The translations under genes and the position numbers were made by a program. This document shows positions 3,673 through 8,038 of a stretch of DNA of 64,000 nucleotides, in pieces (position 1 is the stretch's first letter; the number at the start of each line of letters is the position of its first letter). This DNA comes from Syntrophorhabdaceae bacterium. GTDB lineage: Bacteria; Desulfobacterota; Syntrophorhabdia; Syntrophorhabdales; Syntrophorhabdaceae. The notes beneath the pieces were generated by a model. The model made no database searches. It had not been told where the DNA came from and was given only the letters and a program-made list of their open reading frames with translations. Location of the stretch: assembly GCA_963666485.2 (NCBI GenBank), contig CAXXUO010000001.1, forward strand, positions 512,001 to 576,000, in the 5' to 3' direction.

Positions 3673-3900
3673 ATGGAACTCAAAAGTTTAATGATATTGT
3701 TGATGTTCGCGATATTGACCGGATGTGCGGTCGCCCCTGTAGACCGGTACTACGCATCGGAACCATATTATGCTGCGCCCTGTTGTCCCCCTCCCCCGTG
3801 CTGCAGGCCCGCTTATGGATACTACGGCGGGTATAAAGGCATCTCCGGAGGAGGGTACGGTGGAGGGCACCACAAGTCCGGCTCCCGGCATCACCGGTAG
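3673..3900 (+). CDS. Small Tyr/Gly/Pro-rich lipoprotein
   Basis: Hydrophobic signal with lipobox ILTGC; low-complexity YYGGY/GGGHH tail. Confidence 0.6.
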   Translation: MELKSLMILLMFAILTGCAVAPVDRYYASEPYYAAPCCPPPPCCRPAYGYYGGYKGISGGGYGGGHHKSGSRHHR

Positions 3901-3912
3901 ACAGCCCGCCTT

Positions 3913-5922
3913 TTAACCGCCGACAACGACAGTCCTCAAGACCTCTTCTACGCTGATCGCACCCTCCTTCGCCAGGATAAGGCAGTAATCCTTGAGTGAT
4001 ATCATGCCCGCCGCCAGGGCCGCATCCCGTATGGCCAGCGTGCTTGCGCCTTCGGCTATGAAATGGCGTATGTCCTCGTTGACATTCAAGACCTCGTATA
4101 CGCCGATCCTCCCCTTCGTCCCCTGATTCCTGCAGGCATCACAGCCTTTACCCCTGTAGAACGTCGTACCGGCGGGGAGCCCGAGGTATTCACACGCGGC
4201 CGCGTCTTCGTAGGCCTCCTTGCAGTTCGGGCAGATCTTCCTGACGAGCCTCTGGGCGACAACGCCGATGATAGAGGCGGAGACCAGGAACGGTTCTATC
4301 CCCATCTCCGTGAGACGCATGAACGTGCCGGGGGCGTCATTGGCGTGGAGGGTCGTAAAGACGAGGTGGCCGGTGAGGGCGGCTTCGACGGCGATCTTCG
4401 CCGTCTCCTTGTCCCTTGTTTCCCCGACGAGTATCACGTCCGGGTCCTGCCTGAGGAATGCCCTGAGGACACGGGCAAAGTCGAGGCCGATGTCATGGTT
4501 GACCTGTATTTGGTTGACACCCCTCAGATCATACTCGATCGGGTCCTCTGCCGTGGAGATATTCCTCTTCACATCATTGATCTCTGCAAGCGAGCTGTAC
4601 AGAGTTGTGCTCTTCCCCGAACCGGTGGGCCCCGTCACGTATATTATCCCGTACGGCTTCTTGATCATGTCCCGGACGAGGTTGAGGACCGGGGGATGGG
4701 ATATCAGCTTATCGAGCCCCAGGGTCGTATTTGTCTTGTCCAGGATCCTTGTACATATTTTTTCGCCGAACTTGGCAGGGACTGTGGACACGCGGAAGTC
4801 GATGGACTTGTTCCCCATCTTGATCGTTATACGGCCGTCCTGCGGCAGCCTTCTCTCCGTGATATCGAGCTTGGAGATGATCTTCACCCTGCTGATGAGG
4901 GGAAGCTGTATCTTCTTCGGGAGTACCATGTCCTCCTGCAGGTCCCCATCGACGCGATACCGTACCCTCACCTCTTTTTCCATGGGTTCGATATGGATAT
5001 CGCTCGCCCCCTTCTTCAGGGCCATGGCAATGATGCTGTTCGTCAACTTGATGATCGGGGCGCCTTCGGCCTCTTTTTCTATGTCGGGGATGCCGAGGTC
5101 CTCGTCGCCCCCTTCGTCCAGGGCAAACTCCTTGAGGATATCCGACTGGATATGGTCCATCGACTCGACAAAGCTTTCGATATCGAGGGAGTCGTCCTTG
5201 GTCAGGGTCTTGTATTCCGAATCCATGAATTTAAAAAAATCTTCCTCGTTGACAATGACGAGGTCAAAAAATACCTTCGGGTATTTCTGCTGTACCGCTT
5301 TTTTTATCTCGTCGATCGCCGTGACATTGCGCGCATCGACAACGGCCAGCGTGATCTTGCCATTCACATAGGACGTGGGCAGTATCTTATGCTTGCGCAC
5401 CAGATGCTCCGGGACGCAGGCCATAATGGAATCGTCGTGCTTGAGCGTATGAAGGGAGACGGTGCCGGGGGATTCCCTGTTCTTCATTTCCTCGATGCGG
5501 TCGGCAACGATCCTGCTCAGCTCTATCGACAAAGACTGGTGTTCATGAAGCAGCACGTCGAAATCGTTCTTCATGAGGACCAACACCTTCGTATTGCCGG
5601 ATGCCATAACGGTCGCGGAACGGGGGTTTCCCGTGAGCAGCGCCATTTCCCCGAAGGCAGCCCCGTCGCCCAGTGTCGTAATGGCGACATCGAAATCATT
5701 GTTCTTGGGGTCCCTTTTCCGTATCTCAACTTTTCCCTCGATGATGATAAACATCGCATCGCCGGGCGAGCCTTCGCGGACTATCGCGTGGTTCGGCGGA
5801 TATGACCTCTCGATCATCCTTGCAGAAAGCCTCAGCAGTTCTTCGTCAGGAAGGTCCCGAAAGATGTCCGTATTTTTTAACAGCGCCATCCTGTTGACGT
5901 TCGGCGTATTCATATCAGGCAT
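3913..5922 (-). CDS. PilB/GspE-family secretion/pilus ATPase with N-terminal cyclic-nucleotide-binding domain
   Basis: N-terminal CAP-type domain (IVREGSPGDAMFII..FGEMALL..PRSATV); ASDIHIEP, RRLPQDGR, Walker A GPTGSGKST, AEDPIEY, RQDPDVILVGE, TLHAND, CPNC..CDAC; ATG at 5922 follows AAGGAGG. Confidence 0.9.
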   Translation of the reverse strand: MPDMNTPNVNRMALLKNTDIFRDLPDEELLRLSARMIERSYPPNHAIVREGSPGDAMFIIIEGKVEIRKRDPKNNDFDVAITTLGDGAAFGEMALLTGNPRSATVMASGNTKVLVLMKNDFDVLLHEHQSLSIELSRIVADRIEEMKNRESPGTVSLHTLKHDDSIMACVPEHLVRKHKILPTSYVNGKITLAVVDARNVTAIDEIKKAVQQKYPKVFFDLVIVNEEDFFKFMDSEYKTLTKDDSLDIESFVESMDHIQSDILKEFALDEGGDEDLGIPDIEKEAEGAPIIKLTNSIIAMALKKGASDIHIEPMEKEVRVRYRVDGDLQEDMVLPKKIQLPLISRVKIISKLDITERRLPQDGRITIKMGNKSIDFRVSTVPAKFGEKICTRILDKTNTTLGLDKLISHPPVLNLVRDMIKKPYGIIYVTGPTGSGKSTTLYSSLAEINDVKRNISTAEDPIEYDLRGVNQIQVNHDIGLDFARVLRAFLRQDPDVILVGETRDKETAKIAVEAALTGHLVFTTLHANDAPGTFMRLTEMGIEPFLVSASIIGVVAQRLVRKICPNCKEAYEDAAACEYLGLPAGTTFYRGKGCDACRNQGTKGRIGVYEVLNVNEDIRHFIAEGASTLAIRDAALAAGMISLKDYCLILAKEGAISVEEVLRTVVVGG

Positions 5923-5961
5923 ACTGCTTCCCTCCTTCACCCTTATAATACCGGAGAATAT

Positions 5962-6663
5962 TTATTTTTTGAAGTCCTGCGCGCATGCTTCCCCCTGGGC
6001 CGGTCCCGATTCCTTCAAGCTCCCCGTCTGCCCCTTTTTCCGGGCTGCCCAGTTAAGGACCCTCTGGCTTGCCTGCGGGCCCCACCCGACGATGATCTCC
6101 CCGTCCATGTCGATCGTCGGTACGGCGGTGCGGCCGGTCAACCTCTTCAGTTCTGCCACCCCTTGAGGGTCATTCCCGACATCGATCTCGGTATATGCGA
6201 TCCCGTTGTGCGAAAGAAACTCTTTCGCCTGTCTGGCATACGGTCATTGCGATGTCATAAAGAGCCGTAACTCCCCCTGTACGACATTCGCAGGTGTTTC
6301 CGGGCGTTGTCTTTTTAATAAGGGGTACCCGTAATACATGATCGCTATGCAGACGAGCACGATGACGATCACGGTCGGCGCAGCCGACCTTTTCTTCTTT
6401 ATGACGGGGCCCGGTGCTGTAATGTCCGGCTGCCGGTAACTGACCGAGCCCTGTTGCGGAGCGTTTCTTTCGGACCAGTATTTTCTGACTATTTCGTAGG
6501 CCGAACTTGCCTCTTTCAGCCTCTGCCAGGCTTCCGGGTCGCCGGATGATTGCTCGGCCTGGTATCTGCGTACCAGTTCACGGTACTTTGCCTCTATTTC
6601 GTTTAACTGCGCCGTTTCGGGAATATCGAGGACCTTGAACATCCTCTGGGTGAGCTCATCCAT
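5962..6663 (-). CDS. Putative selenoprotein: degenerate J-like domain, TM helix and glutaredoxin/NrdH domain (Sec at TGA 6244-6246)
   Basis: ORFs 6244..6663 and 5962..6159 are in frame. Read-through gives LFMTSQ-U-PYARQAKEFLSHNGIAYTEIDVGNDPQGVAELKRLTGRTAVPTIDMDGEIIVGW, a glutaredoxin fold; a hairpin follows the UGA. Confidence 0.8.
6210..6228 (-). promoter_or_regulatory. Candidate bacterial SECIS hairpin
   Basis: GCGAAAGA-GUU-UCUUUCGC: perfect 8-bp stem beginning 16 nt after the UGA, with G in the apical loop. Confidence 0.65.
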
Positions 6664-6882
6664 TTCATCCCCCTTATAGCGGTGGTATGTGCCGTATTTG
6701 GAAACCCAAGAATCATATATTAATAATTGTCGATTTTTATTGCAAAAACTTTGTGATATGGCGAGAATGACAAAACCGGGATAAATAAACCTAACAGAAT
6801 ATCTTCATCGGGAGTACAAGCCTGCTTCGGGCAGACTGGGCTTTTTTAAATCGATTAATTCCTCAGGGGGAGGTATATTCTC

Positions 6883-7098
6883 ATGACCGATAGAGAGGAG
6901 TACATGTGTCCTGCCTGCCAGAGCACAATTACGGATGGCGACCTGATGCGATGCCCTCATTGCTATCATTTCTTCGGGCAACAGAGAAGAACAGCACCGC
7001 GCCCGGCTGAGGCGGACGTCCCCGGCCACTTAAGCGGGTTGAAATCGGTTCTCAAAAAACTTAACCTGGGAAGATCATCGCCAGCTGACAGCGTATAA
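6883..7098 (+). CDS. Small zinc-ribbon hypothetical protein
   Basis: CPAC..CPHC; GGAGG RBS upstream. Confidence 0.6.
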   Translation: MTDREEYMCPACQSTITDGDLMRCPHCYHFFGQQRRTAPRPAEADVPGHLSGLKSVLKKLNLGRSSPADSV

Positions 7099-7115
7099 CC
7101 ACAACCAGGCAGTCT

Positions 7116-7469
7116 TTAACCACCGCCATTCTCTTCAAAAAATAGAGGACAAAGCTCGGATGAGCCCGGTACATAATCCCGGCAGACTTTCGGCCGCGTC
7201 TCATATATCTCGCACGAGCACAACCCGTCATCCGAACGAAGATAAAAACAATGATTTATCTTCGACCCCTTCTGCGAGATTATACGGTCACCCGCCCAGA
7301 AGACACCTGTGCCGTCAAGCCGGGCGAGGATGTCCGCCCGTCCTTCCTTCTCCCACCTCTCCCTGTCCCCGGCGTCCGCGTATGCGATCATATCAACACT
7401 GCAGCAGAGGCCGCAGCGGCGGCAGGCCTTCTCATGAACATCGTCCATATCCTGCAGAAAGTGTACCAT
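7116..7469 (-). CDS. YkgJ-family cysteine-cluster (CxxCxxCC) protein
   Basis: CRRCGLCC, C.YL, CEIYETRPKVCRDY; start uncertain (7448 possible). Confidence 0.8.
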   Translation of the reverse strand: MVHFLQDMDDVHEKACRRCGLCCSVDMIAYADAGDRERWEKEGRADILARLDGTGVFWAGDRIISQKGSKINHCFYLRSDDGLCSCEIYETRPKVCRDYVPGSSELCPLFFEENGGG

Positions 7470-7585: not shown

Positions 7586-8038
7586 ATGAGCGATGACCTG
7601 ATCACAGCGGTGTGCCCCAGGTGCGGGGCGAAGAACCGCATTCCCGCAAGCCGATGGAAGGACCGGATGAGATGCGGAAAATGCAAGGAACCCCTTGACC
7701 TGCAGACCCTTTATCCGGGCAGGCCCGTGGACGTGACCGATGCGACCTTCCAGCGGGAGGTGGTGGATTTCAAGGGCCCTGTCCTCGCGGAATTCTACGC
7801 ATCCTGGTGAGGGCACTGCCGGAATCTCGAACCGGTTCTGGATGAACTGGCTCAGGCCTTCAGGGGACAGGCAAGAATAGCGAAAATAAATGTCGATACC
7901 TCTCCGGCATCGGCATCCCGTCATGGCGTGCAGGGAGTTCCCGCCATGTTCTTTTACAGGAACGGAACGATCGCGGACCAGGCGGTCGGGGCCCTGCCAG
8001 GAAATGAGATAGAACGGCGCATCAGGGCCATTTTATAG
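7586..8038 (+). CDS. trxC: Selenocysteine-containing thioredoxin, TrxC/Trx2 type (Sec at TGA 7808-7810)
   Basis: N-terminal CPRC..CGKC zinc finger; EFYASW-TGA-GHCRNLEPVLDELA..IAKINVD..GVQGVPAMFFYRNG..VGALP continues in frame to TAG at 8036-8038. Confidence 0.92.
7819..7841 (+). promoter_or_regulatory. Candidate bacterial SECIS hairpin
   Basis: CCGGAAUC-UCGAACC-GGUUCUGG: 8-bp stem with two G-U pairs starting 9 nt after the UGA. Confidence 0.55.

Follow-up and report, generated by a model that had tools for sequence, protein, structure and literature searches.

The question raised by this locus is whether a TGA triplet in the middle of a reading frame ends a short J-domain-like protein or is read as selenocysteine (Sec, U) in a longer membrane-bound redox protein and, in the latter case, what such a protein might do. 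The window, as we call the whole stretch of DNA analysed, comprises 64,000 nucleotides of the genome of a Syntrophorhabdaceae bacterium (contig CAXXUO010000001.1, positions 512,001 to 576,000). The gene, designated J-TM-Grx here for its J-like domain, transmembrane (TM) helix and glutaredoxin-like domain, runs on the minus strand from 6663 to 5962 with an ATG at 6663-6661 and a TAA stop at 5964-5962. Translation with table 11 splits it into a 139-aa ORF (6663-6244) and a 65-aa ORF (6159-5962); the product has 233 residues when the TGA is read as U140. The original prediction, made from the letters of the DNA, had proposed, without naming the strand, exactly such a single 233-aa product with the three parts in this order, and the reading frame, Pfam and hydropathy bear it out (Table 1). 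The motifs quoted at that time are all present: U-P-Y-A at residues 140-143, A-V-P at 180-182, I-I-V-G-W at 190-194 and the letters Y-Q-A-E at 34-37. The warning that gene callers would split the gene was also justified, as databases hold pieces of 139-146 aa, two of them named "curved DNA-binding protein CbpA".

Table 1. Features of the J-TM-Grx gene and its surroundings (positions in the window).
Feature	Position	Strand	Basis
Whole gene, 233 aa, Sec at residue 140	5962..6663	-	Full-length orthologues 59-71% identical
J-like domain without HPD, residues 1-67	6463..6663	-	Pfam DnaJ, model helices, fold matches
Variable disordered linker, residues 68-97, with a basic KKKRS patch at its end	6373..6462	-	pLDDT < 50 at 71-94; alignment
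Single transmembrane helix, residues 98-116	6316..6372	-	Hydropathy in 13/13 sequences; alignment
Glutaredoxin/NrdH-like domain, residues 131-207 (UPYA, cis-Pro AVP, invariant GWGP)	6043..6273	-	Pfam, NCBIfam, fold match
In-frame TGA read as U140	6244..6246	-	TGA in 6/6 loci; Cys column of homologues
Bacterial SECIS hairpin, 8-bp stem, GUU loop 23 nt past the UGA	6210..6228	-	Folding, conservation, published criteria
Shine-Dalgarno-like purine run, 4 nt before the ATG	6668..6674	-	Sequence; G-rich run at the same place in 4/4 orthologues shown
Conserved AT-rich block upstream, probable promoter	6717..6745	-	Common to 5/5 upstream regions
Sigma-70-like site over the last codons of the gene	5945..5973	-	9/12 matches (promoter scan)

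The AT-rich block upstream of the gene matches the consensus at 8 of 12 positions, which is under the threshold of the promoter scan, hence its absence from the output. The sigma-70-like site at the other end is probably the promoter of the downstream gene, coding for a cNMP-binding PilB-type ATPase, and may explain at the DNA level why the C-terminal "CAQDFKK" is conserved: the DNA of this site is kept even in genomes G011 and G007, where the protein stops earlier. The tail was considered as the carrier of a resolving Cys and rejected because the G011 and G007 proteins end before it, the DNA is similar there and the promoter-like site overlaps it.

The TGA falls in a Cys column. It had been predicted to replace the first catalytic Cys of the glutaredoxin motif, a proposal that depended on homologues having Cys or Sec at this place. 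Cys was found in 140 of 142 homologous glutaredoxin-like domains, taken from the best 150 of 3753 profile-search matches, and the other two are misaligned first sub-hits. Six loci were compared as DNA (the window gene, those of G011, G007 and G002, the metagenome locus L045 and locus L075), and the five related ones all carry TGA-Pro-Tyr-Ala together with an identical hairpin. The N-terminal half matches 15 database proteins other than itself: 12 of them terminate precisely at the U column (the DNA behind three of these 12 was read), and three are shorter or diverge. An assembly error is excluded because a contig from another study's wastewater run keeps the TGA and the hairpin with 21 differences over 5900-6490, none of them in either element; one of the 21 alters the Pro codon adjoining the TGA synonymously. 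The TGA is thus present in contigs of two runs, one of which may be the window's own source, and not the TGC or TGT that would have refuted the prediction.

The perfect 8-bp hairpin announced by the original prediction is present on the minus strand (6228-6210). It has eight Watson-Crick pairs (arms 6228-6221 and 6217-6210) closed by a GUU loop; its first base lies 16 nt after TGA 6246-6244 and its loop 23 nt after. Published limits for bacterial SECIS elements (PMC13188914, including its Fig. 2 legend) are a loop of 3-9 nt with G in the first two places, a stem of 4-16 bp, a loop 16-37 nt from the UGA and a minimum free energy of -7.5 kcal/mol or lower. With GUU, 8 bp, 23 nt and -10.0 kcal/mol over a 36-nt stretch the hairpin lies within all four. 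Folding energy alone says little, because shuffled sequences and synonymous recodings fold comparably: the 80-nt region gives z -0.80 against shuffles, no better than chance, and 3.9% of 5000 synonymous recodings of 12 codons fold equally well. A comparable stem follows 350 of the 125,112 TGA triplets of the genome (0.28%), and a search of Rfam at E <= 1 over 5700-7200 gave no match. In the six loci the stretch from +13 to +34, 22 nt long, does not vary at all, the next longest invariant run being 7 nt, and synonymous codons are invariant at 6/6 hairpin positions vs 3/22 elsewhere (Fisher p 0.0002, the sequences being kin). After the TGA, dN/dS is 0.08-0.37 in all 15 pairs; by this measure the downstream sequence is under purifying selection.

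The genome has the machinery that Sec insertion requires and for which a check had been proposed: selA (C1:229872), selB (C4:168611), the tRNA-Sec gene selC (C1:1387402) and selD (C2:512556) were all found, each at the genome's own G+C, and selD itself carries an in-frame TGA. Both selA and selB were found in the three carrier genomes tested. Judging from these sequence data, the mid-gene TGA almost certainly encodes selenocysteine, and we are highly confident that SelB, bound to the +16 hairpin, directs Sec insertion at this UGA, so that the gene is read through. That the TGA is a real stop, separating a J-like membrane protein from a decayed glutaredoxin remnant, is hardly credible: gene callers have made all copies in the databases stop at this point and two of the six loci are broken upstream of the redox domain, but selection past the TGA, the use of TGA and never TAA or TAG in all six loci, the invariant hairpin and the selA and selB genes of the carriers argue against it, and the assembly in which the G002 copy is frameshifted, between J domain and helix, also has a frameshift in the neighbouring homoserine-acyltransferase-like gene.

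Other genes of the genome have an in-frame TGA. One codes for a protein that is BCP/peroxiredoxin-like by its motifs (T-S-G-U; C10:79852-80292, plus strand), and two, named on the same basis, are HdrA-like (C1:145787, minus strand) and MvhD-like (C1:77734, plus strand); the hairpins of these last two are in nearly the same register as that of J-TM-Grx. A genome scan for motif plus hairpin returned mostly noise, with three recognisable selenoproteins, HdrA, MvhD and a thioredoxin (Trx), the Trx also by NCBIfam. In the window itself, 0.9 kb away (7586-8038, plus strand), there is a second hidden selenoprotein, a thioredoxin of the TrxC type that has a zinc ribbon at its N-terminus, the sequence W-U-G-H-C and a hairpin downstream; its kind (Trx, UxxC) is already catalogued. 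A second selA/selB pair was found in a 55-kb stretch (G000:C3:1-55000) with a G+C of 0.63-0.71 vs 0.55, which probably belongs to a different organism and was merged into this assembly. Two long, odd tRNA-like calls of ARAGORN (Ala AGC, 95 nt, C9:148918-149012, minus strand; Ile TAT, 97 nt, C3:37962-38058, minus strand) are probably false.

The gene is rare. Of the 96 genomes of the class, four yielded it, and all four are among the 20 that belong to the window's genus; the remaining genomes count as "not found", and some of them are incomplete. A first scan of contigs found nothing, and a second, alignment-based one gave four loci, three of which were those of G011, G007 and G002 again. Locus L075 is a 3-kb contig in a Firmicutes-labelled bin and may be misbinned. 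In its copy (L075:1382-2010, plus strand) the J half has several stops and a frameshift, and the TM-redox half, TGA and hairpin are intact; the copy may be decaying or turning into a form without J domain, and one of these stops is also where database protein P0020 terminates. Because only 4 of 20 genomes of the genus have the gene and the J half of this distant copy is interrupted by stops, J-TM-Grx is dispensable.

The N-terminal domain has the J fold and lacks the HPD motif. Pfam DnaJ matches residues 8-59 (E 7.4e-7, 29.6 bits, cut-off 27.8), and the modelled helices span 3-11, 20-39 and 43-67 with pLDDT about 90. Two models agree on the three helices, and in both of them helix II takes up the stretch where the HPD loop would be. 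The five highest-ranking fold matches are all J or J-like domains. The best of them, 2guz_B (Z 9.1, rmsd 2.0, 62 aligned), which we take to be Tim16 of the Tim14-Tim16 complex (the residue range, 53-117, fits), leads ordinary J domains by about 1 Z; this is no clear lead, Z under 13 being common for helical folds. HPD, which in a J-domain co-chaperone lies between helices II and III, is absent in 13/13 sequences. The predicted J-like domain with YQAE for HPD therefore stands as to fold and missing HPD, but "YQAE" is no conserved motif: only Q35 is invariant in the 13 sequences and E37 is Ala in a near-identical strain.

A module related to this domain (38% identity over 72 residues) and likewise lacking HPD stands at the head of an unrelated multi-helix HExxH membrane protein, found in 3/4 genomes of another genus (g9), which is why we regard the J-like domain as a reusable cytoplasmic module. 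Proteins of this second kind, in which an HPD-less J-like domain precedes a multi-helix membrane protein with HEAGH (HExxH), were seen at L080:850-1701 (minus strand), L034 and L082; Pfam gave just a weak DnaJ match for them. The genome also contains, in a 407-codon frame, a degenerate J domain (HHPD; G000:C2:73773-73907, minus strand) fused to an ATPase that is MinD/FlhG-like by its motifs, and it encodes three J proteins that have HPD. A plant HPD-less domain is reported (PMC3196505) not to rescue an E. coli dnaJ cbpA strain and not to bind Hsp70, and to bind another J-like domain (see also PMC10939069).

Downstream of the TGA the full Grx/NrdH fold that had been predicted is found. Pfam Glutaredoxin (PF00462) matches residues 134-191 with E 2.5e-15 and 56.9 bits (cut-off 22.9); among the three PF00462 matches of the genome it is the only one to pass the cut-off. 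The fold ranking is led by cGrx1 (7c10_A, Z 12.0, rmsd 1.4, 75/75 aligned), followed by BC3987 (Z 11.2) and by NrdH and Mrx1 (Z 10.3), with the classic glutaredoxins listed at Z 9.5 or less; cGrx1 is also the best sequence match (E 1.3e-10). The V-P of the cis-Pro substrate loop is invariant in the aligned loci. No NCBIfam family claims the domain: the top match, the YruB family TIGR02196, scores 58.2 bits, below its cut-off of 88.55; Uxx_star is tied for best with 58 bits (cut-off 66) and its subfamilies score 29-40 vs 72-325; the Grx3-type family TIGR02181 scores 40.6 bits vs a cut-off of 90. The Lys three residues before Cys and the Gly-Gly of E. coli Grx3, which belong to its glutathione-binding site, are Thr and Val-Gly here. 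The gshB and gshA/gshF families were not found in the 99% complete genome, and the cell appears, from its gene content, to make no glutathione. The redox domain is more similar to the selenoprotein cGrx1 and to NrdH than to glutathione-dependent glutaredoxins. In a quick tree of 168 domains, based on 75 columns, the family forms one branch (SH-aLRT 87); it stands among mostly soluble domains with weak support, an exported vs cytosolic origin being unsettled in this tree, and the small soluble UPHC proteins of other families of the same order form a separate branch.

The fourth position of the motif sets the family apart. Thioredoxin-fold selenoproteins usually have C, S or T at this place. Here it is Ala in 6/6 loci vs 0/142 Cys homologues, so that the single selenol proposed originally, with Ala in place of the resolving Cys, is confirmed at the sequence level. 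As this Ala occurs in none of the 142, the redox chemistry has to be extrapolated. A resolving Cys of the UxxC type is thus missing (UPYA in all six loci), and so is a C-terminal Sec followed by a stop: the single TGA lies inside the domain and the chain runs past GWGP in 6/6 loci.

Comparison with known systems places the protein beside several of them and inside none. The NrdH-redoxin, YruB and mycoredoxin group (TIGR02196, TIGR02194, TIGR02200; 1h75, 3zij, 2lqq) has the same compact fold (Z 10.3-11.2) and, as here, no Gly-Gly glutathione motif, but its members are soluble CxxC dithiols and the window protein scores below all their cut-offs. The Uxx-star families (NF041212, NF041114, NF041211, NF047338, NF045501) share a glutaredoxin-like domain with Sec (E 8.6e-16 to 8.3e-7); their name denotes Sec two residues before the stop. 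The window protein is below every one of their cut-offs, has no near-C-terminal Sec-stop and carries extra N-terminal domains. ERdj5 (3apq) likewise joins a J domain to thioredoxin folds; there, a J domain equipped with HPD shares one side of the membrane with the redox domains, whereas the membrane probably separates the J-like and redox domains here. Tim16/Pam16, chloroplast CJD1 and ARC6 resemble it in combining an HPD-less J fold with a neighbouring membrane anchor (PMC3196505). Unlike the window protein, these three and ERdj5 are eukaryotic and without Sec. The selenoprotein cGrx1 of Clostridium (Alkaliphilus) oremlandii (7c10/7c12; PMC7642778) shares the fold and Sec as first residue of U-P-x-x but is a small soluble UPxC protein, whereas the window protein has Ala in fourth place and a J-like domain and TM helix ahead. 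The "Glutaredoxin, PF00462, UxxC" selenoproteins catalogued in Table 1 of PMC13188914 keep the resolving Cys, in contrast to UPYA. The protein is a Sec glutaredoxin-like protein, yet it falls outside the UxxC glutaredoxins, the Uxx-star proteins and the J co-chaperones.

The original prediction did not recognise the architecture. The J-like fusion is indeed absent from the 142 Cys domains, and no Cys form of the whole fusion was found among the best 150 of the 3753 profile-search matches, nor by word searches (both weak) among longer and shorter proteins; the layout of module, TM helix and glutaredoxin-like domain, however, does exist in Cys form. Such Cys-type fusions, as zinc ribbon-TM-Grx (P0041) and DUF4124-Grx (P0027, P0031), consist of a cytoplasmic or signal module, a hydrophobic helix and a CxxC domain and keep CxxC in nearly all cases. 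Our literature search found no functional study of these membrane glutaredoxin-like fusions, and no description of a J-TM-Grx selenoprotein in the papers covered, though one may be listed in BSepDB or in paper supplements.

The hydrophobic helix (mean hydropathy 2.45) is followed by a second linker with pLDDT < 50 (116-129), as before it at 71-94. No lipobox or prepilin motif was seen by eye. Lys and Arg are more frequent before than after the helix in 10 of the 13 sequences, with one tie and two reversed. Because there is no signal peptide, the N-terminal domain is folded and the flank before the helix is the more basic, the J-like domain is probably cytoplasmic and the redox domain periplasmic on a short flexible tether; the assignment is insecure because the charge bias is small. 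A hydrophobic segment also precedes 54 of the 142 nearest Cys glutaredoxin domains.

We propose that the protein works like a monothiol redoxin of the cGrx1/NrdH type. Our best reading of the whole, to which we give about even chances, is that of an outward-facing, tethered thiol oxidoreductase with a single selenol, recycled in trans. The product would be a single-pass inner-membrane protein with a redox domain of the cGrx1/NrdH/YruB-type thioredoxin fold. Its exposed selenolate would attack oxidised cysteines (disulfide, sulfenic acid, persulfide) of envelope proteins, or small oxidants, near the membrane, giving a mixed Se-S bond. Since there is no resolving Cys and apparently no glutathione is made, this bond would be resolved in trans, perhaps with the help of an exported thioredoxin-fold protein of CxxC type that CcdA keeps reduced, perhaps with sulfide or a different small thiol, or by way of a diselenide dimer. 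The genome encodes a CcdA-type protein and a CxxC redoxin that has a hydrophobic stretch near its N-terminus (C9:299047), both away from the J-TM-Grx gene. Given the lost HPD and the reuse of the module in another membrane protein, the J-like domain may serve as a cytoplasmic docking module that places or partners the protein, with no stimulation of DnaK. No substrate, partner or conserved functional neighbour of the gene was found.

The original prediction had considered a redox relay or a sensor. In relays of the CcdA/DsbD type, a pair of Cys residues within the membrane works with redox centres on its two faces. The relay finds no support here: there is no conserved cytoplasmic Cys and only one helix, with one TM Cys and no pair. 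A sensor role is possible from the sequence. As a one-component transmembrane redox sensor, which we hold to be an unlikely reading, the lone periplasmic selenol would upon oxidation form an intermolecular diselenide or a bond with TM Cys105, and the joined helices would bring two J-like domains together, altering, in the manner of Tim16 towards Tim14, their binding to a true J protein, DnaK or another target. The absence of a resolving Cys suits a switch, and so do the TM Cys, C105, kept in 12/13 sequences, and the strong conservation of the J-like domain, in which 12 of the 17 invariant columns of the 13-sequence alignment fall. Its best fold match is 2guz_B and J-like domains are reported to bind other J or J-like domains (PMC3196505 and PMC10939069). 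The native selenoprotein cGrx1 (U/C-P-x-C), according to PMC7642778, dimerises via its catalytic residue when the resolving Cys is removed, with intermolecular disulfides and domain swapping; by analogy, this behaviour would fit a dimer switch as well as catalysis. Against the sensor, the long disordered linkers speak against rigid coupling, the lead of 2guz_B is of the small size noted above, a membrane protein of another kind carries the J-like module too and one homologue, P0010, is without the TM Cys. The specific form in which a diselenide or TM-Cys dimer signals through the J-like domain to a J protein or DnaK partner we hold to be distinctly unlikely. If true, such a sensor would parallel, in a bacterium, the control exerted by Tim16-type proteins and couple it across the membrane to the chemistry of selenium.

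A lone exposed selenol is a strong ligand of soft metals, and the selenol of J-TM-Grx might bind Hg, As or Cu at the cell surface, as trap or sensor and not as catalyst. The tie of Uxx_star for best NCBIfam match favours this idea, as does the suggestion, in PMC13188914, that the Sec of UXX-star families may bind metal. We consider it rather improbable: a second Sec or a C-terminal Uxx-stop occurs in 0/6 loci, no metal-resistance gene was recognised by eye among the ORFs listed near the gene in the window, L045 or L072-L075, and the cis-Pro loop that serves an oxidoreductase for its substrate does not vary.

Inverted topology or a cytoplasmic role, with the redox domain inside and recycled by thioredoxin reductase or thioredoxin like NrdH, would agree with its being the sole PF00462 domain over the cut-off in the genome, with its position in the tree among mostly soluble domains (weak support) and with the basic residues present after the helix too. 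This reading is improbable, since inversion needs a folded 67-residue domain to be exported without signal peptide and the charge bias is N-in in 10 of 13 sequences.

Finally, the gene might be a dedicated redox accessory of the cNMP-binding PilB/GspE-type ATPase (type IV pilus or type II secretion), whose gene lies directly downstream on the same strand in 4/6 loci. We find this very improbable. G014 has the ATPase orthologue (89%) and the upstream CxxCxxCC gene with no J-TM-Grx gene between them, in G002 and L075 J-TM-Grx occurs with no ATPase gene next to it, and between the two genes there is a promoter-like site; the link looks positional on this evidence. The ATPase itself (3913-5940, minus strand) has an N-terminal cNMP-binding domain and an MshEN domain, suggesting control of a pilus or secretion motor by cyclic nucleotides; a second copy (68%) is found at G000:C1:1180034-1182025, and a relative (63-75%) occurs in all 19 other genomes of the genus. 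Further on (3688-3900, plus strand) lies a 70-aa lipoprotein-like ORF with C-C-P-P-P-P-C-C and a Gly/His-rich tail, without Pfam match; a similar ORF adjoins the G002 copy.

Returning to the tethered single-selenol oxidoreductase favoured here, its reach is limited to few genomes of one lineage and its function is putative. The annotation of its N-terminal piece, filed as CbpA or hypothetical, is corrected. Neither the UxxA motif nor a J domain is listed in the inventory of 119 selenoprotein families in Table 1 of PMC13188914 (2026), and a term search for "DnaJ" gave no match in that paper or in PMC13326102. New to the inventory are thus the architecture, in which an HPD-less J-like domain, a TM helix and a glutaredoxin-like domain are combined, and the UxxA motif. 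By removing both the resolving thiol and the hydroxyl from the fourth position, in a cell where glutathione is seemingly absent, the Ala of UPYA makes this family a natural test of what a lone selenol can do.
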